This document shows, piece by piece, positions 1,693 to 37,145 of a stretch of DNA of 38,710 nt; positions within the stretch are counted from its first letter, which is position 1, and each line of letters starts with the position of its first letter. The position numbers were made by a program, and so were the translations under genes. The stretch comes from Folioceros fuciformis (Eukaryota): the NCBI GenBank assembly GCA_049999805.1, contig JBNGIO010005748.1, forward strand, positions 100,801 to 139,510, written 5' to 3'. The notes under the pieces are model-generated. The model worked only from the letters and a program-made list of their open reading frames with translations. It ran no database searches and was not told the origin of the DNA.

Positions 1693-4419
1693 TCAGCACC
1701 ACACAAGTTTCCTAGAGCCAGCGAGGTTTGCGGTCAAGCAGGATTCGTAGAATATTGGTCGGGCGTCTGCACCTTCTGCCACTGTCAACACCATTGCCAC
1801 ATCATCTGAAACCTCCATTTCCGTCGAAATCTCTGTCATTATGTGCGGACAAACGTAATCAACTCACAAACTCTCTGGTCTTGCACAGTTTTAGGATTGG
1901 TAGAGCAAGGTTCCTCACCTGGATATTTGTCCTTGACAAGCTTGGCTGCCTTCCTAGTTTCACACCACACATGAAGGACACACTGAGAAAACCCGTGTCT
2001 CTTCTTTACACCCCTCCTTGCCACTACCTGTTAATGGAACGTGCCCGGAATCACTTGCACAAGAACAAATAAGTATACACATGACGCTAAGCTGCAGATG
2101 TCGCAGGCTTCTCGAGTTCTTCGAAATATTTTGTCAGGGATTGGAGAACTTACCAAACCAAATAGTTTCTTTCTTAAAAGATCGACAGCAGTATGTTCGT
2201 TGAATTTCTCTGGATCTGGGTAGGACATAGCTCGAGTCACTGAAACCCCCACGCGTCGACCTGATATTGTGCAGATATAGTCAACTTTCTTCATGTTCAG
2301 GAAGCTGTATTCCACCTGAAATGTGTTTAGCCCATACTCAGTTTGCAGCAAGAAATGAAAAATACTGTCGGGAACTGGACTTCAGCAAAAGGTCTGGAAT
2401 ACCTCCGTTTCAGACACAACTTCTCTAGCGTGAAATGTCCGGACGAAATACTCCACGGATAGAACCTGTGTAGCACAGCACAGGGTTTCCCGAAGTCAGA
2501 TGTTAGCTAGGACTTCGCTAGGATAACGGAGGCCAGGTGTATGGACACGAAAGGCAAGATAAGACCTCAGAAATAGACACGAACAGGCGAGATAACACTC
2601 CAGAAATACACGCGACAAGGCGGAATAAAACCTCAGAAATAGAGGATTTGCCTCCGGCGTTCGGCTTTGTGGCAACCCTTCTAGCTTCATGTCCCAGCAA
2701 AAACCCCATGAACGGAGAGAAAGCCGTGAAATGCCCCACTAAAATCTGTCCGCATTTTGGGGTGAGATTGTCGTGAGTCTTAAGCCGGTGTCTGCAATCC
2801 TCCTCATCTAATCCGTCCTTGGCTCGTGTCAGTGCAATTGTCAGAAGCAAGTTCTCCTTGATTGGCGTAGTCACAGAAAAATCTCTGTTGACCATCATAA
2901 GGAGGGGTTGGGTTCTCTCAGCTGCATTGTCGCTGACTGCTGTGTTACAACTTACATCACAGGAGCTTGATGTAGTAACGGATGAACAATCTGATCTCTT
3001 TGCAGGAAGTTGACAGTTCCTAGGCTGTGGTAGGGACCCTGCCTCTCCTGATTTCTCCAGTCCCTCTCCTCTGCCACAAGTGTCTGCCACCTTCTCGTTA
3101 CGCTGTTTCCTTAGTTGTAGGATTGGAAATAGCATCCTCGAACGGGCTTGCGGTGCCTGTTTCAATGTTATTCCCTTACCTATGCATTGGATATTCAGAT
3201 GAGCCAAGTTGTGATCGATGGTCATACGTGCTCTGAATGTGCAATTCGTTGCTGCATGATTGAGCAGGTTTCGGTTCGGTCTTCTGTAGCCTCTCTGCTC
3301 AATCTCAGAATGTGGTCTGCATTTCTTGACTAGCGGTAGAAATCCCTGTTGCACTGCAGTATGTACCCTTTCCAGGTCATGTGACGAGCCAGTAGTCACT
3401 TTGACAGTAGACCATGAACATCTGCACTTCGTAGTATGAACTGGCTGTGTGCGACTGTCATGCAATTGGGTAGACTCCTGGATCGATGGCCACCTTTCCT
3501 CCTCCAACATTGTCCTGTCATGATTATGTGGGGCGGAAAGTAGGATCCTGTTGCCACCGATAGGATCACCAATTGATCGTAGGGAGCTTTCACCATTGCG
3601 CACAGGCTCAGAAACAAAGTTATGCCTGATAGTCGTGTCATGATAGATAGCTCCTGTGGCTGTGCTACTTACTGAGAGCCTGTGTGTAGAGTCTGATGAT
3701 GTATGGCAGCCTCTCTGTGGAGAGCTATAGGCTTGGGCATCTTGTTGCACGTCACCAAGAATTTTAACCACCAGGTTAGGACAAGTTGTGTGCCTTGAAG
3801 GTCCAGCTGATGATTTTCTGGGCGATTGTCCTTCATTACCTCTGCAGGTTCTAACCGAGTCAGAGGTCGCCTGGCAAGGCCGGGCTCTTGAATCTGTGGC
3901 TGGTGGATGCAAAACCTTGGTTGTCAAAGAGCCTTCCATCAAATCCGTCGTCTCCTGAAGATCCAATCTCTTGGATTCTGTCCAGGGTTTCTGGTTCAAA
4001 GTAGGGGAGTTTGCGGAGGACATGCTTGTGCTCGGCCTTTTCTTTCTCTTTCCACGGGTCTCCTCTGATGATTCGAAACTGAGCTTCTTCCCGCATCCGT
4101 CTGGCCTCTGCAATAACTCTGTCTCTTTCTGCGTAGAACTTGTTGCAGGCATCCTCTCTTCGCTTGAGCTCGGCTTCTTGACCTTCGACACTGCAGGCGC
4201 TGTGGTAGTGCCATTTAGCGAGGAGCTTGGCCGTGAGGGCTGCTGAGCTTGAAGATCTTCTTCCTTTGGTTGTGTCGATGAAGGCGTGTGGCCCTCGTCC
4301 TGTGCAATAAGGGACTGGAATGACTGGGTGCCACTTGTATCCAATTCGGTGGCTGAGAGGCGTCGCACCGGTGTTGTTACCTCCGAAGGGTCCCTCCACT
4401 TCTGATTCACTGTCACCAT
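1693..4419 (-). CDS. AAC4-like protein (family named after Dictyostelium AAC-rich mRNA clone AAC4): long S/T/P-rich N-terminus plus conserved C-terminal domain; 5 exons
   Basis: Minus-strand exons 4419-2632 (or 2566), 2465-2403, 2315-2154, 2027-1919 and 1832-1693 with GT-AG borders give PNAGGKSSISEVLSVEYF...SETEVEYSFLNMKKVDYICTISGRRVGVSVTRAMSYP...LLRKKLFGLVVARRGV...CVLHVWCE...MVLTVAE...IFYE...VWC*. The NAGGxSxxSE, KxxDY, GVSVTRA and LHVW motifs match the AAC4 family as I recall it. The start codon is uncertain. Confidence 0.75.
2546..2643 (-). repeat. Three degenerate ~33-bp tandem copies spanning the first exon/intron junction of the AAC4-like gene
   Basis: Minus strand: TCTATTTCTGAG|GTTTTATTCCGCCTTGTCGCG / TGTATTTCTGGAGTGTTATCTCGCCTGTTCGTG / TCTATTTCTGAG|GTCTTATCTTGCCTTTCGTG. 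Confidence 0.85.
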
Positions 4420-6192
4420 CTTCTTCCTCCTTAGACTTCTTAGACCTTGTGGTAGATGGTTCAGATGATTTGGCCATTGTCGTACAGCTCTAGAGCGTGT
4501 CCGTAGGCTATGGACTACGGGAAAATGGTCTCAAAGGTGCTGCATCAGAGTGGATCCGTCGTCATATAAGCTCGTGTGGTGCGCTGGTTCCTGTGAGGCC
4601 CATTGGATTCAGTTCCTCCTGTCGTAATGTTGCAAAGCCTATCCTGTCCAAACTAAGGCCTTGGAAGAGTAAAGGGAAGCGGGAGAGGGCCCAGAGAGTC
4701 TACAGTACACCCCTTCCAAACCCGATACACCCTGGCTCAAGACTTGTTGCTGTCTGCAGACTCGTCAATCAAGAATAAGGTCCTCCTCCCTGTTAACCAC
4801 AAGACAATTCGAAGGGAGAGCAGCAGAGGACGTTAGAAAAGGACATTATGAAGGAAGTCTGGGTACTTCTGAAGTACCTTGAGAGGTGTGCACTTCAAGC
4901 AAAGGCACAGGTTCAGGAAGCAAGTAACTGAGATCCATCACTCTATCATGATCTCTGATGCCATCTCGAAGGTTCCGATATGGTGTTGCCAAATTAGAAT
5001 GAGCACCATGAAAGCAGCAGAGCAAATCTCTTGGCGTTTCGCCCGACTTGTTGCTCAAAGTTTCTCACATCCTCCCAAGAGGCAAACGTTAATCAGGCTG
5101 ATGAAAGGAATCTTAAAGGGGATCAGGGAGTGAACCAAACCTGGCTGTTGTCGAATCATACAGCGCAGACAGAAGCGTTGCTGCTTGTTCTTTGCTGGGC
5201 GAAGAGCGCAGACGAAGTGAGTATGCGAATCTTGGAAGTAGTAGCAGCGAGGCTGCTCTACTTTTGTAGCCCGTAGGAGCCGAGCTCAAGTTAAGACAAG
5301 GACTCGAGCCATTCTTGACATTCTCACCTTCTTGTGAGGACGTGTGCTGACAAAGGCTCCTGAAGAAGGAAGCCGTAGCTAGCAAGCCATCGACGTGGAT
5401 GCTCGACAGATTCGCAAATTATTCAACCGGCCTGGCTGTTCGTTTCGTAGCGTCGCACGGTTCCAGTGTCGTTCTCCACGGCAGTATGCCACGTCGGCCA
5501 AACGCATTCGCCGCGCAAGTTTAGCCGCGGCGAAACGGAACGAGGTGAGCCTGTGGACTTGTCCAGTGCCGAGGCAAGGGACGACGAGCAGGTTGCGGCA
5601 AAGCAAAGGTAGACAGGTTGATGTCGGGAATGATACGATTCTGTCGTGTTTGCTCTCGTTCGCAGTGCGTGCGCAGCGTTGTGGATTCTTGAGTCGGAGC
5701 GTGCTGGCGTGTGCATGGCCGTCAGGAATGGCGATGGTCAGGGAACGACAACAGGCCTTGGCTTTGACAAGTAAATGGGAGGGTGGAGGATGGCTTGACA
5801 ACGGCATCGGCGTTGAGCAGGGCGTGCAGGGTGTGACTTGCGTCCATGGGCCGCAATGGCAATGGCAATGGCTTTGATTACTGCTGTTTGGCAGGAGTTC
5901 GTGTATGGTTTTGCAGAGGCACAACGATGATAATCGGGGATCCAACCCGATGATTCGACGGTCAGACAGGAACACGCGGGCGGGGCGGCGGGCGGGAGTA
6001 GCAGCGAAGGGCGAACGGCATCGAATGCACCGCTTGCGCATCCCGTGACACTTGGGGGCTCACATGACGAGCCGCACTGGAGTGCAGCCTGGAGGCTTGG
6101 CAGGAACGTCCATCACTTCGGCGAGGAACCGGCCCCGGACATGGCAATGGCAGCTCTCGCTGCGGTGCCGTGGTCCCTGTATTCAGGATACG

Positions 6193-8540: not shown

Positions 8541-10667
8541 ATATTCGACTCAGCATCTATTTGTTCGACCTTGTCCAGAGTAAGAAGCTGAATGTAAAGT
8601 AATATGACTTAACCTCTATTTACTCATTGTTACCATGTGTGAGATATCATTGGGTTCCTGTGATACATTTGCTAACAAGGATTCAAATGTTCGTTTGACA
8701 AGGATTTGTCTCGCGCCAACATGTCTTGGTAGGCCCCATCTCTAGCCGCAATTTGAAGTGTCCTGATTGGCCCAGTCACTTGGTAGGCCCAGCCATGTGA
8801 CTGACACGTGACAACCAGCTACTCACACGTGTAGGTTGCGTGAGGACAGAGCAATCGAACCCGGACCGATCAATTGAAGCCACTTGGCGTGACAAGAAAG
8901 CAATCCAAGCCAAACCGAACCTACCAATTGAAGCCAACGGAATGCAACGGGACCTAGCCCAGCCAAGCAATCCAATCCGAACCCACCCAACTGGACCCAA
9001 CGGTTCACAACCCAACCCAAGACTACGTGACCAGTCTCCGTAGAAGAGCACTGCTTATTGGACCTTTGTGTATATGCACTGGGAGAGGAGAGTGTGGAAG
9101 GAAGGGGGAGATATGGTAATGTGGTCCGGGTCCGGGTCCGGTTCCGGATTGTGGAAGTGGACGTGTAAGGTGAGGACCCTGGGGGCGCAACAGGGCATGG
9201 CGAAACCGAGTGCAGAGAAGGAACCACCTGGCACGATGTCGTTGCTGCGTCCCCTGCAGCGCCCTGGGTGCTGAGTGTCGGGTGCTGGGCCCTGGAGGTC
9301 CTGGGTACTGGGAGTCCTGGAGGTCCTTGGGGTCCGGAGGGTCCTGGGGTCCCAGGCGTGTGCCCGCACACAGCCAGCTCTGCAAACCCGGGCTTGCAAG
9401 CACACACACATACATACATAGATCCTGGCCCCCCCCTCGGCGTCCCCTTCTTCTGGCTTCTCTTCTCTTCTCATTCTCTCTTTTCTGCTTCTCTTGGCCT
9501 CGCCTCGCATCCTCGCGTCCCTTCCCAGCGCTCGCGTCTCCCGACTTTGGCGCCAGAGAAGCCCGGCAACGCGCTCCTCCTGCGCCCGCTCTTCTCCTCT
9601 CCACTCCACTCCGCCCCAGCCCAAGCGCTTTGCAATCTGCTGCATTCCGCTCTCAGCTGCCGCTCTTTCGCTTCTCCGCTTCTCCCCGCTCGGTCTCTTC
9701 TCTGCTTCCCGCTGATTGCTCGTGTTTCTTCTGGTGCTCTGGTGCTTGAGCCTGCGCTGCCGTGCTGCTTCTGCTGCAAGCAAGCCTCCGCCCATCCCGC
9801 AATCCTCCCAGGTTACAGGCGCTGCCCAAGAGCAGAGCGTAGCGCACGCGGAGCTGGATTGGTCACGCACGGTGGCGGGAATGTGGAGCGTCGGGGCCGC
9901 TGTCCTGCAGGTGTGAAGCGGGTGGCGTACCCGAGGAAGCTCGCCTTCAAGCCTCGCCGAGTTGGTGTTGCGGTAACGGTTGAGGATTGCGCAGGCGGGC
10001 GACGGGGATAGCCAGCGACGTCGCCACAGTGACTGCTCCACAAACATCTCGTGAAATTCGCGCCACCAGGACAAGCCGTGGGATTGCGCCTCCAGGTCCT
10101 CCGACAACGCTTTGCCAAGTAATTCGAGGATTGCAGGAGCTGGAGTCAGACCGGGAGCTGCGCGCAATCACCATCTCATCCGGTAAGCCCCCGTGTCTGC
10201 CTGCAAGTGCCGCTACCTTCCTTCCTTGCGTGAATTGCCTCTACCAGTGCTTTTATCAGCCCCCGCTGAATCTGACACCCAGTTTATTGCTCCAAGCTCG
10301 CACCTGTACGGTGCGCCTCTGCTCCCTGAAACGAGGGAGGAGAGGAACAAATCCATGCACCTTGCTCGCTTACTTGCGTGCAGCTGCATGCATGTATATC
10401 GCGCTTGGCCTGCCTCTTTGCCGTGATTCAATCTTCTCCTCTCCATGAATATTCTTATGACTGTGTGTATTTGTTGGCGTGTGGAGTTGGTGAATCTCAG
10501 CCTGAGAATTTGTCCTCATCTGCCTGCATCCTGACTGCTATTGCTGTGTGCAGTGAGCTTCACGAGATTTGCTGCTGCTGCTTTGTGACACTGCCGAGCT
10601 CGCCTGGGTGGAATTGCGCGTGCCGGAGGCCGGGCGTGGGCTTAGCGTGTAGGTCCCAAGAGTCAAG

Positions 10668-13600
10668 ATGCCCCGCGATTTCAGCCGCCTCACAAGCTCG
10701 GTCCGCAAGCCCAGCGCGGACGACTGCGATCCCAAGCGGCTGCCTCTGCCATCTCAGGCGGTGGTGGACTCCACGGCGCCGACCCACTCAGCACTCCGCC
10801 TGCCATTCCACAAGTTGAGCACCAGGGGGAACGCGCAATATCCTGACACCTCCTCGGCGGACGGCCAGGCCAAGGTGCCCGTCACCAGCACCATTCGCCT
10901 GGTCCATGCCGCCTCAGGCCGGATCAGGGAGTTGAGCGTGAAGCCCGGCGTGAAGCCCCACCGCTTGGCTTTTGCCTCCAGGCCCGGCCACTCTCGGCGT
11001 TCGTCCTTGACGGAGCAGCTGACGCTGCCACCGGACGTTTGTGACATCTCCGTCGCCGACGTCACCAATATCATCATCAACAGCCAGGTGCCTGCTATTG
11101 GGACTGGGACTGGGACTGGGAATGGGAATGGGAATGGGAATGGGAATGGAAATGGAAATGTGGCCACTGCCCAATTGCATACAGATCGTGACAGCGTGCA
11201 TCATCCGGAGTACCAGGATCCCCTGCTCTGCGAGGCTGTTTTACGAACCATCTACGCTCCCAAGCGGAACGGCCAGGATTGTGTGGACACGATGATGGAT
11301 GTGGCTGCCGTCAGGGGGGTGTTCCCANNNNNNNNNNNNNNNNNNNNNNNNNNNNNNNNNNNNNNNNNNNNNNNNNNNNNNNNNNNNNNNNNNNNNNNNN
11401 NNNNNNNNNNNNNNNNNNNNNNNNNNNTTCCCAACTATGAACGACTCGGCTTTTTCTACTGTGCAGACCCGGGCTCGGAAGGTTGCGCTGTACCGGCGGG
11501 CAGGTATGTTTTAAACGCCTTGGGATTCACCACCTGCGGATGCTGTGGATGGGGATCATGGCACTGTTGCTTTCACCGCAATTTGTTGACCGGAAGACTG
11601 TGGCTTTGTGCAGAACTGGTGTGCAGACTGGACAAGATTCACCATGACGGCGACCCATTTATCAACCCGGCTCTGTTCGACGATCAGACCCATTACATGG
11701 CCTGGAAGGCAGAGGAGATTCGAGAGCTTACAAATAACATCGATTTCATGACCACTCTGCCGTCCTTCTCGGCGTCTGTGCAGGTGAATGTCATCTACGG
11801 GGATGGTCTCGGGGAACCTGGCGAATCATCATGCCGGTCCGTGCTTGGGTGCGCCAAGCCCCCTCAGCACCTTCAGGCCTACTGCACGGTTTCGTTGCTT
11901 CCAGCGAAGCCGGGTAACACCACATCTCCGGACGCCGAATCCGACAATGCGGCAGTGAGAAAACCTGCATTTCGCACCAATCCCGTGGCTTGTGGTGAGA
12001 GTGCCGAATGGAACGCCAAGTCGCCGTGGATCCCGGTTGCCAGGTAATCAGCTCCTCCCCATTTTCCTAGTCACTTAACAGAGGAGCTCGGTCGGTGAAG
12101 AGGATTCTGACGCAATTGTGAATTGTGGTGGCAGCGCGCAGGACCGGTTCCTCATTGAAGTATGGGACAAGCTGGGCGGGTCTGTCATTCGGGGAGACGG
12201 GGAAATAGCCCGTGCCCAGGTCACCACAAATTCCTTGAACCAGTTCATCAAACGGAAGAGTAATAGGAGGAACACGAGGAGAAAGGTAGTACTAGGAAGC
12301 TCCAATTCAAATGCTGCCAGTCCTCCGCACCCTGTCCATCTTACTGCGGAACCGTCTCACGCTGTTGGAAATGTGAATGCAGGTGGCTCCTTGGAGTGGA
12401 GACACGTTTCTAGGGCAAGTCGTACTGTCCTACACGCACGTCGAAGCGCAAGCCCTTCCACACGGTGGGCGCCAAGGGGATGGTCCTGCCACAAATTACC
12501 AGCTGCTGGATGACAAGGGGAGGGAGACCTCCATCACTCTCACGCTCCAGCTTTCTTGCATTTGCGAGAGGCTGTGCAGGTAGGCGTCATTCAGTCCTCC
12601 GTTTGGCACTCACAGTCTGGTCGCCACCCGGCTACGTGTGCATAACTCAAACTTTGTCCTTTTCTTCTCTGGCAGGGAAGCACCGCCAAACAGGTTGCTT
12701 TTGTCGCCTCCGGTGGATGACTTGGAGAGAGCTTACGACCTACTCCTCCGTTTGGCATACAGGCAGCTGAGGCCAGGTGCCACCCCCTTGCTGTCTTCCT
12801 TGGGTAGTTGCTCCATGTGCTTAAAACGGGGGTTTTGGGGGTGGCGTGGGAGAGGTCCTAACCGTCACTCTCACTCCTGGCCTGCAGGTGAGTTCAAGCT
12901 AAAGACTCAGTGGACGAGGATTGTCAAGGACTTCGCAACTCATTACGGCTTGCGGAAGGAGAGATGTAGTCTGGCCCTTTCCCACCTGCTGGCACGAAAG
13001 TTCAATACGGATCCCGAATATCTGCAATACCTCGTCCAGGAGTGGTCCCCAGCTTGCCAGGCTGCGAAGGACGGCAAGCTAACCAAGACGGAGCTGGCTG
13101 TTCACGGCAGTATTGTCGTGTGTACGTTCCACTTTCCAGTCCTGTTTTGGTCTCCATGCTCGGTCTGGGCTTTTCGTTGTACTAATCACACTGTTATGAC
13201 TGTGAATGTCCAGTGCTTATGAAACCTGCCGTGGATATCGTTGAAAATTTCCAGACTGTATTCCCCAAGAACCGGCCTCCAGGAGGATTGGCGAGGCTTA
13301 TTGAGCTTCTGTCACTGACTCTGCGTTGGGACCTCAATCTGGATGAAATTGTGGTTCCCCTTCGGAGCTGGGTCCAGGTGAGTAATAGATGCTCCACTAC
13401 TTTCACGCTTGCTCGCTTGATTCACACACACGCACACCGTGTGACATTAACCTGTTGTTGGGTGCGTGGCCCTGACCAGTCATTTTGCGAGAAACGGTTC
13501 CACAAATCTCTCGTGAACGACTCTCTGCAGACAGGGGAATTGAGGGATATCAGTTCCCAGTCAATCACCAGAGCGGTGCGCTTCATCCGTAACGATCTTC

Positions 13601-16600
13601 AAGAGCATGCTTCCACCTTCGTGGACGCCTTTCCGAAATCCTGCTTCCTTCCTGCCGTCACCGCCCCTGTCTACTACAAGTTGGTGAGCCTGCTTCCATC
13701 CTCTGTGCAGCATGGACGCTGGCAAGCGTGTTGGACAGAAGTTCTGAGAGCTGGTTCTCAATGTCAGGTGTCTGACTATATCAAAAGTTTTGTCGGGGCT
13801 GCCTCCGTGAAGACATTTCCTAAAGATTACGTGGTGAGTTGACACCAACGGCATCCCAGTTGCTTAGGGTTGCGGTACTCTGGATATTGGCGTGTCGCTC
13901 CTTCCAGAAACGGTTGCAGATGGGAGCTGTGCACTTCCTTGCAGGACTTGGCCAAAGAGCTGTTACTGCTCCACGAAGATATCGAAAAACTGGGAGTGCA
14001 GCTGAAGTTCGTAGACGTGCACAGCGTGTTCGAGGAACATCTTAAGCTATGGCTGGCGACGACAAAGCTTCGCATGATAGAGTAAGGCCTTCTATTTCTT
14101 GCCGTCAGGAGACTTGTTTGCGCGTGGCCTCTTTGCGTGAGATCGGTTGCACCTCAGGAATCAGATTTGGAAGAAGCTGACTTTCGAAGCTTGTTGTTGC
14201 CTGTCTGGTTCAAATCGTGCAGGTGGATAAACTCGACTGTTAGTGCGGAGAAATGGGAACCGCTCTCTCCTAAGACAAATGCTTTCTTCTCATTCTCTGT
14301 TGTTGGTAAGATCCGTCACGACTCCTTTCCTGCGTGTCTCGCGCGTTTTTCTTTTAATTTTTAATTTTCCCCCCTCAATTTCTAGATAACAATCCATTGT
14401 TGGAACTGGGCAGATATTCTTTTCATGATTGGCGAGGTTGTGGATGAATTGTCGTCTCGTCTCTTGTCCCTTCCATTTGGGGCGCAGTATCTTCCACAAG
14501 TTGAAGTCGGGATTTGTAAGGCCATCGAGACTTATGTAGGAGTCTTGGAAAAACTTTGCCAGGAAGCGCTTCCAGAAGAAATTTCAACTAAAACTCGTGG
14601 TATTCTAAGCCGGTTCAAGTCGGACGACAAAGTTCAGCCCCTGTCAATATCGAAGACTATGTGTGTCATGGTGAGCTGGGTACAGTTTGGACTGTTGTTT
14701 TTGTCTGTAGCTGCTGCTGTAGTTCTGTAGACCCCCCCAGAGCATCTTGACATGTGGAAACAAGGTCATCGCGCCATCTGGACACGTTAACAGTAACACG
14801 GTGTAGCGCTTGCTGGTCAACTTGTGCAGCTGAATGATATGCTCGCTGTTCTGGAACAAGACCGGGACTTAGAGAAACGACTGGAATCAACATGGGGAAC
14901 TGCGCTGCAAGCAGTTCCTGCAAAAGTATCTGAAGATAGCGATCCGGATTTGAATTTTCCTGACTCTGATGAGAATATTCCAGGGTAAAACCTCTTTACC
15001 CTGCTGGGGCCATCAGCCTTCCTAGTATCTGGTCGAGTCTAACGTTTGGCCTAACAGCTCGTGTGTATGTTTGTTCAGCGAGAATGTTATCCCCGGTGCT
15101 GTCAACACACATCCTCGTCCCAGTACGCAGGTCGGCCAACATTTCAAAGATCTGGATCACTATGTGCAGCAGACTTTGACGAATGTAATCGGATCAATTG
15201 TGGAAAACCTGCAGGTGAGTGCCGATTAGTTCACGTTTTTTATGGACTGCTCCTCAACTGTTTCAAGAAGTAGGTAGATCTAATCGAGGGTTGCAAATGC
15301 TCTTGCAGGGCCGTCTAATGAGTGAGCTGCAGTATGTCCTTCGTGATTTGGACTCTCATGCTGATTATGATATCGGCGACCAGTTTCTGCCTTTAACGAA
15401 ATATCTGGATGAGCATCTTTCTGTCATGAACGAAGGACTGCATCCAACTCTCTTTCGACGCGTTCTTTGGGTAGGATATCTGGTTGTCCTCCTCGTTTTC
15501 TTTTGGTGAGACACAAACTGGCATGTCCCTTGATTTTGTCGTTGGTCCTGATCACTGCCTTCATTCCGTGTCCAGGAGAGTGCACACGCGTTGATGTTTT
15601 GCATGGAAGAGTTTGCCCTGAATCGTGACGAGGATCCCACTCCGATGACTCCATCGCAGAAGATGAAAATGGAACAGTCTCTGACATTTTTCTATGACTA
15701 TTTCCACGGAGGCGGTCAGGGCCTTAGTAGCGAGGAGATGGATGAAGTTACTGGCCGCCTTCGGAAGATTCTTTTTTGCTGGGATCTCGGCACTCGTGAG
15801 CTTTGCATCTTATACTGGCAAGCCTGGGATAGGTACAACAACGTTGACACGCAAAAGAAGGCGAATTCACCGCGCGAGCCAGTTCATGGGCTCAATCCGC
15901 CGTCGGTTGGGCACGTGGAGTCTGTCAAAGTTGAGACCCAGTTACATGTGTTGGACTACTTGACGCTGCTGAGACAGAAGAATGACGACGAGGCTCGGGA
16001 TATTGTGATGCGTCAGAGCTTGATCGCCAGCAACAAGATGATACAGGTATTTGTCTGTGAGCAGAGAGCTTATATAATGACCGAACCTTGCCTGCTTGGG
16101 TGATTGCTGTGGTTAGGGGGACTCTTTCGCCCAGCAAAGGCACGTTGGTTGACATGCTACTGCTTCTCTCTGCCTTGCTTGTAGTTCATCTTTGGACTTC
16201 CGAAGGATGAAGAGATCCTCGACTCCTTCGGCTGCAGGTATGTCTCGATGCTGTTGATGCAGCTGCATCCTTAGCACCATGACAAGTATCTGTCGTGCCG
16301 GTATGACTGATCTGTGACCATCGGTCTTCTGGTGACAGGAATTCAAGGAAGGCCAAAGGCACTTTGTATGTGACAGCACGGCATTTGTGTTTTGCCGGTA
16401 CAAGCACGGCCGCAGCGGATGACAGGAATGTATTTCTGCTTCCCTTTGATCGGATACTGCGACTTTCGGTTGTCGGAAACTCCTCTATCTCAATTGTTGC
16501 TCTAAACAACCGGGTGACGAAGGTCACAAAACTTAAGGACTGCAACGATGTCTGCCGAATTATCTACAAACAGGTTAGAAAGGATCACTACGGCTGTCCT

Positions 16601-17399
16601 ATTGGGTGTTTCAGGCTGCCAGGTCTTATGTCCTGTTTCTACAGGTTGTTGGCACGGGAACTCATTTGGACAGATACATGGCTTCAACGTGGCTCACAGG
16701 TACGCTCCACTGCTCGCGCTAACGTGATCTATATTTAGCAATGTACGCCAACTTCATGAGGTTTCCAGCTGAACGGTGCAACGTAATTGTGAGATCCAGC
16801 AAATTCTGGTTCGAAGGAGCGCCCAGTGTCCAAGCAGCCGAGCGAATCGAAAGCGTCAGCGGCTCCTTCACGTACTCCATCAACCCAATCTGAAGACTCG
16901 GGTGTCGAAAACGTCGATTTGGGACAGCATGTCAGTTTTCTGCCTACTTTTGAAACCTTGCTACAACTTGTTCACCTTCCCTTTCTGCACTTGTTGAGAA
17001 GAGGCAAAGTGTATTTACTCGTCGTGTTACTGCTACTCCGTCTGGTGGCATACATGTTGATCTGTACTTATCTGGTTCTCGAGTCCTGGAAGCATCTTAC
17101 TGCGGGGAGCAATTGCATCCTTGTGACGTTTGACTTACACATCATAAACCCATGTCATCTGCAATGACTTTGCAGCTAGTTTGCAAACGTGTGCACTCTG
17201 GGATAGGAATGCTGCTACTGCAAATGCCATCACCACAGGGGCCTAACAGACAAATCTCTGTGGGAACGAATCTGTGCAGGAGAAGTCCGTGAATAGCGAC
17301 GATGACGAGCCAGCCAGAGATAGCATGGAGCTGGAACTGACGAGGGTACTTCGGGCGCAGATCCGGAAATTAATCCGACGTGAAAGAGGCAAACTCTGA
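10668..17399 (+). CDS. Unc13/Munc13-like protein: C2 domain, MUN domain (MHD1+MHD2), C-terminal GRAM domain; about 21 exons
   Basis: Phase-compatible GT-AG exons: 10668-11503, 11614-12043, 12135-12285, 12383-12579, 12676-12776, 12888-13121, 13214-13377, 13480-13683, 13768-13833, 13945-14081, 14223-14305, 14414-14670, 14830-14984, 15079-15214, 15309-15470, 15576-16046, 16185-16237, 16339-16573, 16644-16699, 16800-16930, 17250-17399. C2: VQVNVIYGDGL, AYCTVSL, AEWN, FLIEVWDK, DTFLGQV. MUN: IVKDFATHYG, FQTVFP, FSFSVVDIL, MCVMLND, FLPLTKYLDEHL..FRRVLW, YFHGGGQGL. GRAM: FGLPKDEEILDSFGC..GTLYVTARHLCF. An in-frame stop lies 18 nt upstream of the ATG. A probable 5'-UTR intron spans 10183-10553. Confidence 0.88.
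11100..11159 (+). repeat. Hexamer microsatellite (GGGACT)3(GGGAAT)5(GGAAAT)2, read in frame as (GT)3(GN)7
   Basis: Seen directly; the reading frame is open through it. Confidence 0.9.
11328..11427. other. Assembly gap of exactly 100 N, probably a placeholder with overlapping ends
   Basis: 100 N flanked on both sides by TTCCCA (11322-11327 and 11428-11433). Confidence 0.9.
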
Positions 17400-17770
17400 A
17401 GGAGAGCACCACGGATTCGGACATCACCCCCCGGTCCACAATCTTCGGGCATTGCTGATTTTGTTCCTGGTGAGCATTGCTGATTCTGTTCTCGTGAACA
17501 GAGTGGTCGGGTAAAAATTTTGCACAACTTATGCAAGTCTAGGCTTGAGCCTCACTTGCGGAACAGTGGGTTTGGTTGGGGACCTGCTCAAAAACATTCT
17601 TTGTGTACTTTGATACACTCAGGCCGCCCATTGATTTATGTCGAAGTAGTGCGGAAAGTCATCAGTTAGTTTGGACCATATCCCGTCGTCGTGGGAGACA
17701 TACGAAAAGCGGCAATAATTTTGGCTCTAGCGGACAGTACATTTCAACCTGGTGGCGCAGCATATTACTG

Positions 17771-18570
17771 TCAATCTCTTCTGCCTTGCTGTGTTTGCCT
17801 CGAAGCTTGCTCCGACTCGAAGTGCTTTCGCATCGCCTTAGGCAAGTGAACAGGGAGTAGAAAACCGAAGAGATTGAAGCTCCAAAATATCATATTGGCA
17901 ACAGCAAGCATCTGCCCAAACCTAATCCACGGTCCTCCTGATGGCGCGAGCTGGCGACCCCCGGGTTCCTGCTGCAGGCCTCCCGCCTCCTCGGCGACAC
18001 AAGACCTTATCCAAGTTGAGATTGAACCCAACCTCCATGCGTTGTAAGAAATAGGGACAAGACAACGAGTGATGACTGAAGCCTTGTTCGTGTTGGAAAA
18101 GACCTCTGTTAGCACCTGGCATGAGAGCAAGAAGAGATGGGGTGCTGCTGCCCGTATCGCGTTCTGATCCCCTTGACCAAATGCAGCAATGATGTACACC
18201 AGCGGCAACAGAAGCCCCAACACAGCTCCGAGTGTGATATACTTGCCGAACCATAGACTACCTGCAAATACGGCAAGGCTTTGAGCAACAACGAGCACGA
18301 AGGTCATACAACGGCAGGACGCTAAAACTTACTCTTGTAGAAGCTGGAGGGCGGCTCAGCGGTGACCGGGGGAAATGCCACCTTGTTGAACAACCAAATG
18401 TATGCAGAAGTCAAGAACACAAAACCAACATCTCCCCCCGAGACCAGACCACAAGCAGCAAGCAGAACCGTCAGTAGAAGCAGTAGGACGTGCAACCGGG
18501 ACAGCCGGCCTACGAAATTCGGCGGCCGTGACTTCGCGGTGGCGCCGTGAGAAGGCCCGCTTGGACCCAT
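17771..18570 (-). CDS. Conserved plant multi-pass membrane protein of unknown function (At1g27990/At5g52420-like); 2 exons
   Basis: Exons 18570-18333 and 18262-boundary intron 18332-18262 (GTAAGT...TTGCAG, phase 1), exon 18261-17771. Product: ...LLAACGLVSGGDVGFVFLTSAYIWLFNKVAFP...LWFGKYITLGAVLGLLLPLVYI...GDQNAIRAAAPHLFLLSCQVLTE...LVPISYNAWRL...LAVANMIFWSFNLFGFLLPVHLPKAMRKHF, with several hydrophobic helices. Confidence 0.85.
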
Positions 18571-20474: not shown

Positions 20475-22350
20475 AGAGTTTTGATACTAATTCTAATCAC
20501 ATATTAGAAAAGGCGTAGAAGAGATGGATGCACTTTACTATTTTATTGCAAGGGCAATCTGCAATGTTTGCAGTTATTGCACCTGTTCAGATTTGCATCC
20601 TCTCCTTTTTCAAATATTACAATTTTGCTGAAACACAAATTGTTTCAGGACGCCATGACAAGGAATTTCAACAGCATATATTGCAAATGTAGTCACCAAC
20701 AGCCATTTTCAAGTCTTGCTGGAAATTGCAATAACCATAATCAATTTGCACCTTGTTGGCCAGCGCCTCCATTTTTCTGTCCTGGGCACATCCCTCTACA
20801 GCACAATTATCAGTCAAAGCCAAAGCAAAGATAAGATCTCTACTCTATCTCAAAGAAGCTTACACCAATTCAATATGAAATCTAGGTCTTAGGTGAAGAG
20901 GTACACGAACAACAACGCAAAGCCAAAATAGAAAATATATTGATGAAGAAATAGATAGGTCAATTAGAGAAAAAATTCCATCAACTAGCCACACAATTTT
21001 AGGCCCTCGCCTCAGGCACACACACAAATTTGCCTAAATCCACACCTGAATTTTCAGCAACAGACCCAGTTGTTTCCTTCATTTGCAATATGCCATCTTC
21101 ACCCAAAGTTTCTAATATGACATATCGCCCATTACCAGAACCAACCAATTTGAGTTCATACAAACCTCTCCCCAAACCTATAGAGTGTGCACTTGCAGGA
21201 ATAGCCTCACTCTTCAAGAGCTCTTCTACCATCTTGTAAGATTGCGGGTCGTGAACCTCGATAGGTAGAACCTGTAGAATTAGCACACACCTCTAGCACA
21301 TTAGCATTGGTTATCACACCATGACTACCACTAAAATGGAAATAAAGGACAAAGACAGGTTCAATGGCTCAGACTTTGCAATCTGGGAAATGCGCATGGT
21401 TGGCATTTTTGGAGAGCATGAACTCGTGGATGTCGTGGACGACTCCCTTGGTGTTGCAGCAACAAATCCTGCAACTGTACAAGGCCAACAAGCAGTTAAT
21501 GTCATCGAAGCATGGCACAAGAAGGATAAGAAGGCAAGAAATACATTACTCTCTACCCTGGATCGCAATATGATGCAACATACTCAAGGGCAAGCAACCG
21601 CACACAATGTTTGGAAGGTATTCCAAGACATGTTTCCTGCGAAAGATTCTATGTCTCTTATCAATTGCACATGTGTTTTCTACTCACTCCGCATGAAAGA
21701 CAATGAGATAGTGGAACACCATATAGATAGGTTTCGAACCTTAAGAGCAAGATTAGCAGCTGCAGGAGAAACGCTAACAGAGTTGAAGGCGTCTACTGTC
21801 CTACTAACTTCATTGCCTGCAAGTTATCGAACTTTTGTCAGCTCACAGGCAACCTTACTTAGACAAGCAAGTGCAAGTATCACCCTGTCACAAGTTGTTG
21901 GAGCTCTGTTGGAAGAGGAATCCAGTTGTGTTGGATCTAAAAGACCTTCTTCCTCCAATCAATAGCATGTTCTCTACACCTCTCACGGAAGAGGTAGAAG
22001 ACGTGGAAGGGGACAAAGTTTTGGTCCTCGACGTCCATATTCTGCTCAGCTAAGTACATTTCCTCCACAACGAGTGAAAGGCCCATGCAATTGGTGCCAA
22101 ATTCCAGGGCATTTCGAGTATGAATGCCGGAAGAAACAAGCAGGCAAGCCACGGCGACCTGCAGCAGAAAGCAACATGGCTGTCAGACCCAACAACAAAT
22201 CTCGAGCAATATTGGCTGTTTGCCTATCTCTTACCAGAGCCGAACATGTGGTTTCTAGACTCCGGTGCCACCAACCACATCTGCCACTCACGTGAGATGT
22301 TCAGTAATTATACCTCTTCTACAACTAGCCAATTTGTGCTATTAGGAGAT

Positions 22351-22579
22351 GATAGGCGAAATCAAGTTGATGGCCAAAAAACGTTTGTAAAGGATAGGCG
22401 AAATCAAGTTGATGGCCAAAAAACGTTTCTGAGGGATAGGCGAAATCAAGTTGATGGCCAAAAAACGTTTGTAAGGGATAGGCGAAATCAAGTTGATGGC
22501 CAAAAAACGTTTGTAAGGGTTAGGCGAAATCAAGTTGATGGCCAAAAAACGTTTGTAAGGGATAGGCAAAATCAAGTTG
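22351..22579 (+). repeat. 42-bp in-frame tandem repeat, 5 full copies plus a partial, inside the Copia protease region
   Basis: Unit GATAGGCGAAATCAAGTTGATGGCCAAAAAACGTTTGTAAGG at 22351, 22393, 22435, 22477, 22519 and (partial) 22561; encodes DRRNQVDGQKTFVR. Confidence 0.95.
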
Positions 22580-23265
22580 TAGTTCAATCATGGACACAGT
22601 TTTCAGCTTAGAGGGGTACTTCATGTTCCTAGTATGACCAAAAACTTGCGTTCAATACGCAAACAAACCTGTGATCACAGCCTGCAAGTCATATTTACCG
22701 CAAGTTGGTGTGTAGTCTCCTCAGTTTCACAACCCTCGCTAGTCCTAGCTAATGGTTTTCCTTACCATGACCTATATCATCTGCATATTACCACCAAGCA
22801 TGTTCAGTCAAACACACAGCAAGCTTTTGTAGCAGATGCTAAACCAGCAGTAAGTCCCTCTTTTTTATGGCACTGTAGATTAGGGCACCCTAGTCTAGCA
22901 TGCATAGATAGAGTAGCGAAAAATAAAGCCTTGTACAAAGACGGGCTTACCATCAAACTTGATGCCACACTTTTTTGTGAAAGCTGTCAAATTGGGAAAC
23001 TTACTCAAAAGCCTTACAATGACCCCTCGCCTACAAGAGTTATACACTCGGATGTTTGTGGACCCATGTCTACATAATCCTTTGGAGGAGCAGTGTATTT
23101 CTTGTCATTGTTAGATGAATGGAGCCCCTTCTGCAAGCTCTATTTCCTTCACCATAGACATCAAGTTTTCAGCAAATTTCAGGAATATGTAGCCATGGCA
23201 GAACCTCAAACAAGCTCCACCATCAAACGCCTACGGACTGACAACGCCAAAGAGTAGTTCATATC

Positions 23266-23855
23266 TTACAGATAGTGGTTGTGAGGAGCATATGGTTCTT
23301 ATAACCAATGTTTTACTCAAATAACAAAAGGAGAGGTTGCATGCAAGTCTATGGTATGGGATACTCATAAATGAAGGGACAAACAAGATGAAGGTGCAAC
23401 AAATAATTATTTATGTATATTATTTGCATAATGGGATGGTATGAACGGATTTTTTGAAGCTAGCCAATATCACAAGTGCATGTAAGGAAGGGATCTTCAA
23501 CACCTTGGTTGAGCAATTACAACTCTTTAATCTGGGCATCAAAAAAATGAGTGGATTTGGAAGCGATGAAGCATCAATCATGGTTGGCAAGGGCCAAGGC
23601 CAAGGAGATCACAATGTTGTGAAGTTTCTGCATATTGTAAATATGTGTTTTGCTCAAACTCATTGTGTTACTCACTGCACGGCACTTGCAACTATAGATG
23701 CTGCATCCAAGGTTCCTGACTTTGAGGTGGTGGACAAGATTGTCAAGAAATTGCACGCTGCTCTTCGTCATTCAAGCAAGAAGACTACGGTTTTGTGTAA
23801 ATAGAAAGTGCAATTAGAAATGCAAGTCTTAACTGTATTAGGAATTCATGACGTC
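23266..23855 (+). pseudogene. Degraded hAT (ZNF862-like) transposase, middle part, inverted relative to the other two parts
   Basis: TDSGCEEHMVL...MSGFGSDEASIMVGK...THCVTHCTALATIDA...LRHSSKK...LGIHDV, matching the hAT GxGSDGASVM and HCxxHxxxL motifs. Confidence 0.82.
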
Positions 23856-24082
23856 TGATAAACTCGCAAGAGCGTGACCATGAGGCATGGCCTAAAAAAC
23901 GCAAGGAGCACACACAAAAAGATAGTTCATATCAAGAAGAAGGGTATTAAAATACAGAAAGAGTTTTGTAACCATTTTAGTGAACAAATCCTAATTCAAA
24001 CTTAAACCAATAACGGTTCATAGTTGGATGGGTAGCTAGTTAGGGCTGCTATGATATATAATAATAATAATATATCTTAATA
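23856..24082 (-). repeat. 3' LTR of Copia element A (227 bp), inverted relative to the 5' LTR
   Basis: Its reverse complement aligns with 20239-20462 (about 13 substitutions plus one extra TTA). On the minus strand it is preceded by the polypurine tract GAGAGGGGG (24091-24083) and followed by GACGT (TSD copy). Confidence 0.92.
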
Positions 24083-27000
24083 CCCCCTCTCAGGCCTAAC
24101 CAGGCAACCTTCAGATGTAGTGAAAACTAGGCCGAAAAAGAAAGAAGTATGGGTTAGTCAGAGTTTGGAAATGATCGGCTGCAAATAGCTAAGGAAATCT
24201 CGTCCACTCATTCACAGTCTCTGAACGGCAGGCAATCCAGATAACAATGATCACAAAGCAAGTCTGGCCGTTGCCAGCCACACTCTTGAGCTGGTTGCTC
24301 ATAAACCCTGAACAAAGCGCGCGACACACCATGCAGGGGTTGAGGAGTGACTGGAAGCTGCGCCCAGCTGAAAGAAAAAGGGGCGCACACCCTATTGTGA
24401 GGTGAGGTGCGCGTCATGGAGCTGAGGGAGGCACACAAGCCGGAGTGTCTGGAGGAAAAAAACTGCTGCAGAATCGCCATGTGAGTGCGCATCTACTGCG
24501 CGCTGGAGCTGGTTGGAATCTGCTGCAGAATCGCTGAGAGTGCAACACATCCATTGCGTGCGGGAGTGACTGGAGAGTTGTAGGGTGCCCGCGCACTAGA
24601 GTGACTGGAGAGCTGCTACAGAATCGCCATAAGGGCAACGCGTCCAACAATAGACGCTGAGCTGCTAACCTGACTCCCTCCAGCGACATAGGTCCAAGTT
24701 CAGCGCTGCTACCTGATTCGCTGTGCATGATGCTTCATCTAGACATCGCTGCTGGTCTTAACGAATTTGCTCTTGGTTCTGCAGGAGCCGTGGATCTGCA
24801 AGAACCCTGGTGCTGCATGAGCCCTGGTTCTATAGGAGCCTGGTTCTTATTCTCTTGTAGTCCCAACGATAGCCTGTGCTGCTCATGTAACAATCTCGAT
24901 AGGCCTTTGGTGAGCAAATCTGCTATATTTTGCGTTGTTGGTATATAGGCTAGTTGGATAATTTTCTGCTCGACTGCTTGTTGAATATAGTGGAACTAAA
25001 TCTCGATATGTTTGGATCGTGCATGTAAAACAGGATTCACAGAGAGTGCTATAGTAGACTGATTGTCACACTGCAGGATAGTAGGCTTGGTTTGCTGCAG
25101 GTGTATTTCGGAGAGAAACTATCTAATCCACGTAATCTCTCTAGCTGCAAGGGAAAGTGCGCTGTATTCTGCCTTTGTTGAAGACAGGCTAATCGTCGAA
25201 AGCTTTTTGCTCTGCCAACTAATAGCTAATCCACATAAAAGTGTGCAGTATGCTGCTATCGACTTCCTATTGTCAACATCACCAGCCCATTCATCGTCCG
25301 AAAAACAGGTGAGGCTGAAAATACTTGCCTTGGTATATGTTAGACATAGATGTCTAGTGCCTTTCAAATAGCGTAGGATACGTTTAACAGTGACCCAATG
25401 GCGTTTTCCAGGGTTGGATAGGAAACGTGAAACAATGCTTGCTGCTTGTGAAATATCAAGCCTTACCCAGCCAGTGAGATAAAGTAAATTGCCCACAACC
25501 TCTCGATAAGGTACAACTGCCATTTCTGCCTTGTCTGAATCTGTTACAGGGCAGTCCTCAAGTGATAGCTTCTCACCGGCTGCAACTGGGGTGGCTACTG
25601 GATTAATATCTTGCAGGTTGAATTTAGATAAAAGCTGACAAATGAAATGCTCTTGATGTAATGTGACAGATCCTGCTGTGAGGTTGAAGAAAAACTGAAT
25701 GCCTCAAGCGAACTGAAGAGGGCTTACATCTGTCATATCCCACTCTTCGGAGAGCTGCTACTTGACTTCTGTAAGGATTTCATTGTCACTTGCAAAGATG
25801 AAATTATCATCAACGTAGAGGGCAATAATGCATAGCTGGCTGTTCTTGCACAAGATATAAACACTGATGTCAGCAGTAAGAGGCACAAAACCTAAAACAC
25901 GAAGCTTTGCATCTGCTCTTCCATTGCAGATGCGTGCGGACTGTTTCAACCCATACAGCGACTTCATAAGCTCACATACCAGGTCAGGATCTAATACATA
26001 ACCCTCAAGCTGCTGCATGTAGATTGTTTTGTCTAAAGGCCCATTTAGAATTGTTGTTTTTACTTCCATCTGATGGACAACAAGTTTATGCTGAACAGCA
26101 AAAATAATAGAATTCTCATTGATGTAGGCTTGACTACGGGGCTAAAAGTCTCGTGATAATCGAGGCCTTGAACTTGAGTGTAGCCCCGTGCTACAAGGCG
26201 GGCCTTGTATGTAGCAACAGATCCATCAAGATGAAGCTTAAGTTTAAAAACCCATTTTGAGGTAATAGCTTTCCGTCCAGCAGGCAATTTGACAAGCTTC
26301 CATATGTGGTTGTCTATCAAAGATTGATACTCACTATCAATGGCTTTCTGCCACTCTACCTTTTGGGGTGAACTAAGAGCTTCCTTATATGTCATAGGTG
26401 TATCAGGAGGCTCCATTATGGTAAGAGCAATGTGCTGAGCCATCTCTGCTAGACTAGCTCGCACGTTGTCTGAAGCATTTGATGTTGCACGAGAGACAAA
26501 AGAATCACTTGGTGTGTAGGGAGGTTCCAACCAGGCTTCTCTTGGACGACGTGTCCGTGCAGACCTACGTAGAGGTAACTGATCTTGTAAAAGCTCTTGT
26601 TGTGGCTCAACAGCAACACGGACAGGTGTTGGTAAATTAGGATCTAATATATCATCAATGAGATGGGGTGGACCGGGGTCATCATGGTTCTGGAAAGGAG
26701 GCTGATCATCATCAGGTGGTATGTCAATATTAGGCTCATCAAAGTCAAGTGCTACAACAGCTGGTAGGCGTGCTTCATAATTCAAAGGTTGAGGTTGACT
26801 TAAAATTTCATCATCAAAATCTAACTAGTGGTATATGTTTTCTTCATAATCTGACTGTACAGGCTGGTTAGTGAAAATTGTAGAGGGTGTGTGTCCATTG
26901 ACGGAACCTACAGGTATGGCGTCATGGCTAGTGCTACTATGAGCGTGTGACTCTAGGATGAAAGCTTCACTAAAACTTACACTGCGAGCAATACATAGTT

Positions 27001-27359
27001 CCCTTGTAAGGGGATAAACAAGCTTATAGCCTTTGACTGTGTCGGAATAGCCGACGAACACATGTTTCATTGCCCTATTGTCCATCTTATAGCGCTTATC
27101 AACAGGAATATAGGCATATACCACAGCACCAAAAACTCGAAGGTGACCAATAAGTGGCTTGTGTCCATACCATCTTTCAAAAGGAGTTGTGTCGTACAGA
27201 GGTTTAAGGGGCAGCCGGTTGGCGACGTAGTTCACAGAATCAACAGCTTCTGCCTAGGAACCCTTGGGTTGTCCTGCTATTGTAAGAACTGCCCTTGAAT
27301 GCTCCTGTAGTGTGCGATTATACCTTTTTGCATATGGATTCTGAGGAGGATCATATGAA
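23856..27359 (-). mobile_element. Ty1/Copia element A, 3' half: rest of integrase, SH3-like region, RT, RNase H, 3' UTR, PPT and LTR (degenerate)
   Basis: Minus strand: YDPPQNPYAKRYNRTL...AEAV...YVANR, HLRVFG...FVGYSDTVKGYK, WKLVKLPAGRKAITSKWVF...YKARLVARGY, LYGLKQS, LYVDD, PYREVVGNLLY...FSDDEWAGD...ISWQSKK...AEY, MLTKGL. Confidence 0.92.
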
Positions 27360-27715
27360 AATCCTTCTTAGCAATGAAATAGGTGAACTTCAACAAGTTG
27401 AGAATTTCCTTATCCTTTTTTGAAAAAATGCATTTCCAAAGTTCGTTGCCTGATTGGTTGTTGAGCCTTGGCTTGGGCTTGCTCCATCTTTAGATACACT
27501 AAATGATATGTACTCCTTGTATGGTTCTGCAATGCACTCTTTTGAAAGTTTGACTGCCAGCTTTTACCCAAGCTTTGAGTTGCAGCCTTAGCTTGTCCCA
27601 CTATACCATGACCATATATTTCACAAACAGCACAAAACATGCGATTCTCTTTATTGATTGAGCGCAACTCCACCCAATGAAATGCAACCTTCTATTCTTC
27701 CTTAAAGACTCTTGC
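27360..27715 (-). pseudogene. Degraded hAT (ZNF862-like) transposase, N-terminal zinc-finger part
   Basis: After an acceptor-like TTTTGATGTAG the minus strand reads ARVFKEE*KVAFHWV...RMFCAVC...NFQKSALQNHTRSTYH (TTF/C17orf113-type C2H2 pattern) ...LLKFTYFIAKKD. Confidence 0.75.
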
Positions 27716-36640: not shown

Positions 36641-37145
36641 GAGGGAGGCTGGGCAGAGAGCGTGTGCAGAATCGGGAGACTTTGATCTCCTGCTACAGGC
36701 TGCAGGCCTGGGGTCGTAGATGGAATTCAGGCTTTGCTTGTTTGGTCTTGTGTTAGCAACAACAAGGATGTGTTGTGTGGCGAACCATTCGAATGGTCTT
36801 GCCGTGCTTTTCTGCTAGACTTGCATCATCATGTTCATCATCCTGTCAATTAGATAAAGTTGAGATTCAGCGCTTGTCTGCGGATTCTCTTGTGAGTCTG
36901 GAAGCCTGCGGACAGACAGAGTGGCTTCAGCATCAATTGCGGCTGGGGACATGAGTCGGATCGCATTGCTGCATCAGGCTGAGTGCTTGTGAGTTTAGGT
37001 CTAAGAGGTCAGTGATCCCTGATAGGATAGCGTTGGAGGGTGCCTGCACTTGAAGTGCAACTTGTGGCTTCAGCAAGCGTAGCTTAGGATATAATTCTTT
37101 CAAGGACTACGTAGTGGCGCCGAGGGCACCACGCACGCATCTGGA

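Follow-up and report, generated by a model that had tools for sequence, protein, structure and literature searches.

Among the described systems closest to the gene considered here is Munc13-1 of the Unc13 superfamily, whose domains follow the order C1-C2B-MUN-C2C and which, as the title of Protein Data Bank (PDB) entry 7t7c records, ends in C2C and contacts one bilayer through its C1-C2B end and another through C2C. According to PMC8728020, an Asn-Phe (NF) pair of Munc13-1, N1128/F1131, meets the syntaxin linker and is required for syntaxin opening. Munc13-4 and BAIAP3 (C2A-MUN-C2B) lack C1 and end in a C2 domain, and their Rab27-linked function is known, from an entry title, only in animals. 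C2 domains are present in the MUN proteins of metazoans and fungi, and plant MUN proteins of the PATROL1 type possess no known domain besides MUN, as they are described in PMC3731666; plant MUN proteins have so far been discussed as bare MUN domains.

The present gene lies in a 38,710-nucleotide (nt) stretch of contig JBNGIO010005748.1 of the Folioceros fuciformis assembly GCA_049999805.1, the whole of which is called the window and supplies all position numbers. A preliminary description of the locus had proposed an animal-style Unc13 vesicle-priming protein in which a C2 domain, a MUN region and a GRAM domain follow one another in a single spliced product. The splice model and the corresponding junctions of orthologues bear out this order in one gene. 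With high confidence as to identity and architecture, an intact gene occupies the locus and encodes some 1,350 residues, arranged as an N-terminal region, a C2B-like C2 domain, a MUN rod and a GRAM domain; judged by its sequence, this spore-bearing land plant has a bona fide Unc13-superfamily member of C2-MUN-GRAM type. The reading favoured here joins this identity to the proposal that such a product would act as a two-ended tether and SNARE-assembly scaffold, and as a whole it is given a probability of roughly 0.55.

Set beside Munc13-1 and Unc-13, the window protein and its orthologues likewise have a C2 domain directly before the MUN rod, the C2 being most like C2B and including its loop-3 insertion, and they keep MHD1- and MHD2-type motifs, find their best structural match in Munc13-1, and by analogy would share the logic of a membrane-binding rod with two ends. 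The differences are that Munc13-1 and Unc-13 carry C1 and a C-terminal C2C, whereas the window family has GRAM at the C2C position and another N-terminal region; identity is 12-19%, and conservation does not extend to the NF pair or to the majority of the calcium ligands. Munc13-4 and BAIAP3 resemble the family in having C2 then MUN without C1, but end in C2 rather than GRAM. PATROL1 and the Arabidopsis DUF810 proteins are, like the window family, plant MUN proteins, and orthologues of the window protein match the Pfam model TPR_PATROL1 in part; the family has C2 and GRAM, whereas PATROL1 is described without accessory domains, so that the two are set apart by description, with no PATROL1 sequence in the comparison. 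Two statements of the preliminary description, that animal Munc13 ends in a C2 domain and that PATROL1 lacks this arrangement of C2 and GRAM, agree with the entry title and with PMC3731666, respectively.

Gene structure

The Unc13-like gene is read from the + strand, and the surrounding DNA has a G+C content of ~50-55%. Its exon chain (Table 1) comes from a purpose-written protein-to-genome spliced aligner guided by seven orthologous proteins, all of which gave identical junctions in the conserved core. The assembled model, 11467-16699, consists of 19 exons and 18 introns and reads through 1109 codons without a stop; the introns are 71-159 nt long and GT-AG in 18 of 18 cases. The ATG at 10668-10670 is the first past an in-frame stop at 10650-10652, and in the spliced alignment the N-terminus of the window protein aligns with those of its orthologues. 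Neither this model nor the 217 codons of exon 1 contain a stop or a frameshift, and all splice sites are intact. At the few places where the guides disagreed, the splice choices 15124/15219/15289 were dropped, the alternatives 15079/15215/15309, which have consensus sites, being kept. A run of N at 11328-11427 conceals the true 3' end of exon 1 together with about 25-35 codons, as estimated from the orthologues, and because this gap falls in the coding 5' part any gene model here is incomplete.

The hexanucleotide repeat at 11099-11160 is not present in the orthologues, and its length may therefore be variable.

Recognition of the gene depends on splicing. Pfam applied to 17 raw open reading frame (ORF) pieces returned only a weak GRAM match, in ORF 16307-16735 (E 3.9e-4), and since this result is nearly empty a spliced model is required. 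The spliced product matches a Selaginella protein by blastp at 899 bits, with 43% identity over 1109 columns, which excludes chance, and is 34-46% identical to the proteins of mosses and ferns and to P0006 and P0007, two further members of the family (numbers of this form denote proteins in the comparison set).

The GRAM domain and the 3' end of the gene

The architecture depends on whether a single gene contains the GRAM exons together with those for C2 and MUN. The last MUN exon ends at 16046 on a codon boundary with GTATTT next to it, and 138 nt later TAG stands before 16185. Read in frame, this acceptor TAG is a stop codon, and with no ATG in the 53-nt first GRAM exon no separate protein can start there. 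The MUN-GRAM junction is contiguous in Selaginella P0005 (a RefSeq model), in P0006 and P0007, and in the moss proteins. Against Pfam GRAM (PF02893) the middle one of the three exons, taken by itself, reaches 21.6 bits (E 2.1e-4), below the cutoff of 23.6 because it spans profile positions 28-66 only; the orthologous Selaginella segment reaches 47.8 bits (E 1.5e-12) and P0007 37 bits, and with a hidden Markov model (HMM) built from the tails of orthologues the three exons in the window obtain 82, 19 and 18 bits.

These observations bear on the possibility that two adjoining genes, one for C2-MUN and a small one for GRAM, were wrongly fused in the earlier model. In its favour, three fern proteins (P0001, P0002 and P0004) have mutually similar tails of ~70 residues in place of GRAM, two of these proteins coming from ~4.5-kb contigs that look transcript-like, and the model of the GRAM-bearing Adiantum capillus-veneris protein P0003 departs oddly from a close relative just ahead of GRAM. 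However, canonical, in-phase splice sites flank the short phase-0 intron, the junction is shared by lycophyte and moss orthologues, and GRAM occurs together with MUN-type domains (MUN or TPR_PATROL1) in 9 of 19 long relatives scanned with Pfam, which leaves an erroneous joining of two genes very improbable. As far as DNA can show, the GRAM exons are part of the same gene as the C2-MUN exons, and the separate GRAM transcript that the preliminary description had named as a danger to its proposal is improbable. In ferns there may be two isoforms with alternative last exons; no counterpart of the fern tail was found in the window.

At the 3' end the supported part of the gene is shorter than first proposed. 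The initial extent of 10668..17399 holds at its start codon, but homology stops at 16699, the likely stop codon is the TAA at 16720-16722, and nothing after it is supported. A second GRAM domain and a fern-type tail were searched for downstream of 16700 and neither was found, no piece of 16723-17800 rose above chance against an HMM of orthologue C-termini, and spliced alignments past 16722 disagree among the guide proteins. Moss orthologues end ~20-25 residues past the first GRAM, and for this reason an end at 16720-16722 is moss-like and a single GRAM a normal form.

The same comparison bears on whether the locus is a decaying or truncated copy. Selaginella, P0003, P0006 and P0007 carry a second GRAM-like domain that has no counterpart in the window, and the N gap interrupts the coding region, as a pseudogene might lead one to expect; against this stand the open 1109 and 217 codons, the intact splice sites and the equally single-GRAM mosses, and a pseudogene is accordingly very unlikely.

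Relatives, distribution and phylogeny

With the largest exon (15594-16100) as query, three longer proteins were found, two of them from Adiantum ferns, and the longest of these as query added a fourth. A profile of the four fern proteins, searched against 1.84 billion representative proteins, gave 70 matches at E<=0.001, 13 of them at E<=1e-30. Named relatives are Selaginella moellendorffii LOC9635747, Ceratodon purpureus KC19_7G110800, Physcomitrium patens, two species of Sphagnum (partial proteins) and two of Adiantum, annotated as uncharacterised or as MHD1/MHD2 domain-containing (for Adiantum, 'MHD2 domain-containing'). The window gene is thus the orthologue of a catalogued but uncharacterised land-plant family, and is not unique. 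No seed plant is among the named matches, which suggests absence from seed plants, but most matches are without taxon assignment.

The tree, from a quick maximum-likelihood search over 28 rows with no root inferred, has long branches and no PATROL1 sequence. It places the window protein in a 13-row clade with all named plants and P0006 and P0007 (support 100 in the Shimodaira-Hasegawa-like approximate likelihood-ratio test, SH-aLRT), and within that clade it stands together with Selaginella and the mosses in a group whose branching is not resolved. The sister clade consists of six proteins rich in Ala, Gly, Pro and Arg, which may, as a guess from composition, be algal. Across the midpoint from the plant clade lie the fish protein Unc-13C, two MUN-C2 proteins and several MUN-GRAM proteins. 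The two MUN-C2 proteins, P0044 and P0046, are probably of the fungal Ync13/Git1 type; like the window family they belong to the non-animal part of the MUN superfamily with C2, and the fern profile matched them at ~5e-8, but their C2 lies between the halves of MUN, they have no GRAM, and their place in the tree is beside Unc-13C and apart from the plant clade.

The combination of domains is not confined to that clade. By Pfam, 11 of the 19 long matches have GRAM (E<=0.01), and two of the nine that combine it with a MUN-type domain, P0047 and P0014, have a Pfam C2 as well. P0034, P0042, P0047, P0048, P0063, P0051 and P0014 show by Pfam the same (C2)-MUN-GRAM order as the window protein, but are 18-23% identical to it and sit on other branches of the tree. 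The C2-MUN-GRAM architecture is thus recurrent and probably old. The existence of these more distant MUN-GRAM proteins fits an old lineage, and with the named relatives all being non-seed plants it agrees with the earlier suggestion of an ancient Unc13 branch kept in a non-seed plant, save that the gene is not peculiar to this plant. P0014 (1867 residues), which has C2, TPR_PATROL1 and GRAM, begins with an asparagine-synthase domain and is probably a fused gene prediction.

Feature neighbours in the Atlas are leads only: they include unc13D and BAIAP3 clusters at 0.85-0.86 and, for P0005 at 0.86, clusters from streptophytes under the names 'MHD1 domain-containing protein' and 'Pesticidal crystal cry8Ba protein', the latter (At4g24610-like) being possible seed-plant relatives; among the neighbours of P0047 there was no MUN-GRAM cluster.

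One alternative is that the gene is a plain member of the known plant PATROL1/DUF810 family. TPR_PATROL1 is the Pfam model that orthologues match most often, exceeding the cutoff in P0005 (47 bits), P0074 (41.5) and P0075 (39.9), and fish Unc-13C has no match to it at E<=0.05. The matches within the family are nevertheless partial and, at 15-47 bits, weak for a family model. No strong full-length match appeared in the 69 of 70 profile matches scanned with Pfam (19 long and 50 short, all but P0002). The fern profile moreover reached the fungal/animal-type MUN-C2 proteins P0044 and P0046, and the C2 and GRAM domains here contrast with the bare MUN reported for PATROL1 in PMC3731666. Membership of that family is therefore very doubtful, and as far as could be tested, with no PATROL1 sequence available for comparison, the window gene appears distinct from it.

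A description of a MUN-GRAM fusion was not found among the titles and abstract openings listed from open-access literature and bioRxiv, subscription papers lying outside this scope, and no title listed there for At4g24610 deals with this family. To that extent the earlier view of the gene as undescribed is upheld, with members of its family already present in databases.

The C2 domain and the MUN rod

The region before the rod aligns with the C2B domain of the fish protein Unc-13C (P0079), including a long, basic loop-3 insertion with many Lys and Arg residues. It aligns likewise with the C2 domains that Pfam recognises at the equivalent place in P0047 (E 4.8e-21), P0014 and P0073. In an AlphaFold2 model of the fern orthologue P0004, made from a 56-row alignment and ~40% identical to the window protein, residues 232-417 form a beta-sandwich that more than 20 C2 structures match with TMt 0.6-0.8, Munc13-1 C2B being best at 0.80. 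In the orthologues Pfam found neither C1 nor a second C2, whereas the same scan of fish Unc-13C found C1, C2 (two stretches) and MUN.

For the rod, sequence and structure agree. Pfam MUN is found in the orthologue P0006 at 35 bits (cutoff 24.2), and a profile of nine plant-clade proteins aligned by hhalign with fish Unc-13C gives a probability of 97.1% and E 5.9e-11 over 362 columns. The P0004 model (mean predicted local distance difference test score, pLDDT, 81.3) contains a helical rod at residues 436-1124, the elongated, all-helical fold of the CATCHR type. In a Foldseek search of this model against the PDB the best match was Munc13-1 C1-C2B-MUN-C2C (E 5.3e-22). It also retrieved Munc13-1 C1C2BMUN (E 9.4e-18), Munc13-4 (9la9) as fourth match (E 1e-13) and three Munc13-1 MUN crystal structures (TMt 0.56-0.58, E 4e-9 to 5e-8), with Tip20/Dsl1 and M-Sec among weaker matches.

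The four motifs from which the preliminary description argued are all in the spliced product, column for column with their counterparts in Unc-13C, which agree fully or nearly with the Munc13-1 readings quoted there: the first at 12920-12949, an MHD1-type motif across the junction 14305|14414 and an MHD2-type motif at 15699-15725 among them. Other MUN proteins of the set also keep these motifs, and they therefore mark the MUN superfamily rather than special closeness to animal Unc13. Close tracking of Munc13-1, as had been claimed, does not extend beyond the short motifs. The window protein matches Unc-13C by blastp at E 0.012 and the structural alignments of the P0004 model show 12-14% identity, so that similarity to Unc13 is remote, a likeness of fold and motifs and not of close sequence. 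The term animal-style is thus an overstatement, and with neither the NF pair nor the bulk of the calcium ligands conserved, vesicle priming is no more than inferred.

Several observations weigh against the favoured reading and are collected here. The gene model is predicted from the DNA and the alignment of orthologues alone, not from transcripts. Pfam does not detect C2 directly in the plant clade, and on single window exons neither MUN nor C2 gives a match, these being too short for the two models. The profile of four fern proteins found no PDB sequence at E<=10, so that relatives of solved structure came from the fold comparison only, and the structural evidence comes from the fern orthologue P0004, which has no GRAM, not from the window protein; with the other tail of three fern proteins, GRAM is not obligatory in the family. 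At the positions that we take, from Munc13 C2B, to be calcium ligands, the Asp cluster of loops 1 and 3 is not conserved, the window having Pro, Gln, Lys, Leu or Gly in most of the columns aligned with Unc-13C C2B and one or two Asp being left. The NF pair was mapped through PDB chains, on an assumed construct numbering, to the one N-x-x-F that this part of Unc-13C contains; in this low-identity alignment its columns hold Asp and Lys in the window and Ser/Met, Glu/Thr or Asp/Thr in orthologues. Finally, the binding of lipids, membranes and SNAREs by the family is predicted only.

Another N-x-x-F, right after the MHD1-type motif, was considered as the NF pair and ruled out by the mapping through PDB chains.

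Proposed mode of action

By analogy with Munc13-1 C1-C2B-MUN-C2C, the window protein would be a two-ended membrane tether and SNARE-assembly scaffold, this mechanistic part taken alone being a little short of an even chance. At one end the C2 domain would attach to a membrane by binding acidic lipids independently of calcium, a mode favoured because few calcium ligands are kept and Lys and Arg abound in the loop-3 insertion. Between the two membranes the MUN rod would serve as a rigid spacer, and the C-terminal, PH-like GRAM domain would replace C2C and grip the second membrane itself or some lipid or protein that marks it. Given the missing NF pair, whatever the protein does to SNAREs is probably unlike syntaxin opening by Munc13-1, and a tethering or SNARE-templating role would be favoured over syntaxin opening.

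The chief competing explanation is a CATCHR-type scaffold with a principal task other than SNARE priming, acting at contact sites or in lipid sensing led by GRAM, with MUN as a spacer. GRAM domains occur in sterol-transfer and phosphoinositide-phosphatase proteins, and weak Pfam matches to the exocyst subunit Sec6 in P0006, P0066, P0077 and P0078, the Tip20/Dsl1 and M-Sec fold matches, the unconserved NF pair and the mostly lost calcium ligands are all consistent with such a role. Yet the best fold matches are by far Munc13-1 and Munc13-4 and not exocyst or Dsl1, the MHD1- and MHD2-type motifs are kept, and Pfam found no lipid-transfer domain in the orthologues. The contact-site scaffold is thus unlikely, if the most serious of the rivals, and a SNARE-assembling tether is preferred.

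A bolder form of the tether proposal sees in these proteins an undescribed, ancient Unc13 sub-family of the green lineage or wider, in which one or two GRAM domains replaced C2C, forming a calcium-free bridge between two membranes that would prime or tether a pathway, secretory or at contact sites, peculiar to spore-bearing plants, and which would have been lost or remodelled beyond recognition in seed plants; put forward tentatively, this has the odds against it.

Implications

Where plant MUN proteins had been treated as solitary domains, mosses, lycophytes and ferns possess a conserved family that keeps the Unc13-type C2B-MUN core and adds GRAM. Such conservation indicates a fuller Unc13-like tether, with two ends, in the ancestor of land plants. 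The Physcomitrium orthologue is a genetically tractable candidate for the study of tethering and SNARE assembly outside animals and fungi, and the family raises the question of what role GRAM has where it terminates a MUN rod. The finding is of limited value in that the family already exists in public databases as uncharacterised proteins, its function is predicted, and its absence from seed plants is only suggested.

Neighbouring features

On its 3' side the Unc13-like locus is bounded by the convergent DUF7733 gene (Table 1).

Table 1. Features of the window, with the exons of the Unc13-like gene and its neighbours (positions within the window)
Feature	Position	Strand	Basis and remarks
Exon 1	10668-11318	+	217 codons; start codon; poorly conserved, partly disordered N-terminal region; start and end homologous to orthologue N-termini
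Hexanucleotide repeat, in frame in exon 1	11099-11160	+	Period 6, 10.3 copies; encodes a Gly-Thr/Gly-Asn run
Assembly gap, exactly 100 N, inside 5' coding part	11328-11427	.	Sequence
Small exon, helical linker	11467-11503	+	Aligned to fern, Selaginella and P0006 proteins; donor cag|GTATGT
Three exons, helical linker then C2 domain	11614-12043, 12135-12285, 12383-12579	+	Splice model; C2 at ~11763-12579
MUN-type helical rod, twelve exons, first half	12676-12776, 12888-13121, 13214-13377, 13480-13683, 13768-13833, 13945-14081	+	Splice model
MUN-type helical rod, twelve exons, second half	14223-14305, 14414-14670, 14830-14984, 15079-15214, 15309-15470, 15576-16046	+	Splice model
Phase-0 intron, 138 nt, from last MUN exon to first GRAM exon	16047-16184	+	cag|GTATTT, pyrimidine-rich tract, TAG|
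GRAM domain exons	16185-16237, 16339-16573, 16645-16699	+	Pfam and orthologue-tail HMM
Likely end of coding sequence, TAA	16720-16722	+	Applies if splicing does not use the 16700 donor
Stretch lacking homology support	16723-17399	+	3' untranslated region, intron or lineage-specific tail possible
Convergent neighbour gene piece, DUF7733 membrane-protein domain	17771-18325	-	Pfam E 3.2e-48
Ty1/copia-type gag	21297-21962	+	E 2.6e-28
RVT_2	25119-25700, 26060-26821	-	Retrotransposon pieces
RVT_2	29712-30674	+	E 4.3e-67
Open frame with DnaJ (J) domain, in GC-rich stretch	33534-34424	+	Pfam E 8.1e-20

Long frames at 37095-38708 (+ strand, 538 codons, running past the window end) and 2518-4527 (- strand, 669 codons) had no Pfam match at E<=0.05. 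The block 21297-30677 is AT-richer and holds Ty1/copia-type pieces on both strands, where two or more elements appear to be nested or adjacent; the ORF at 22078-22611 encodes a tandem peptide repeat.

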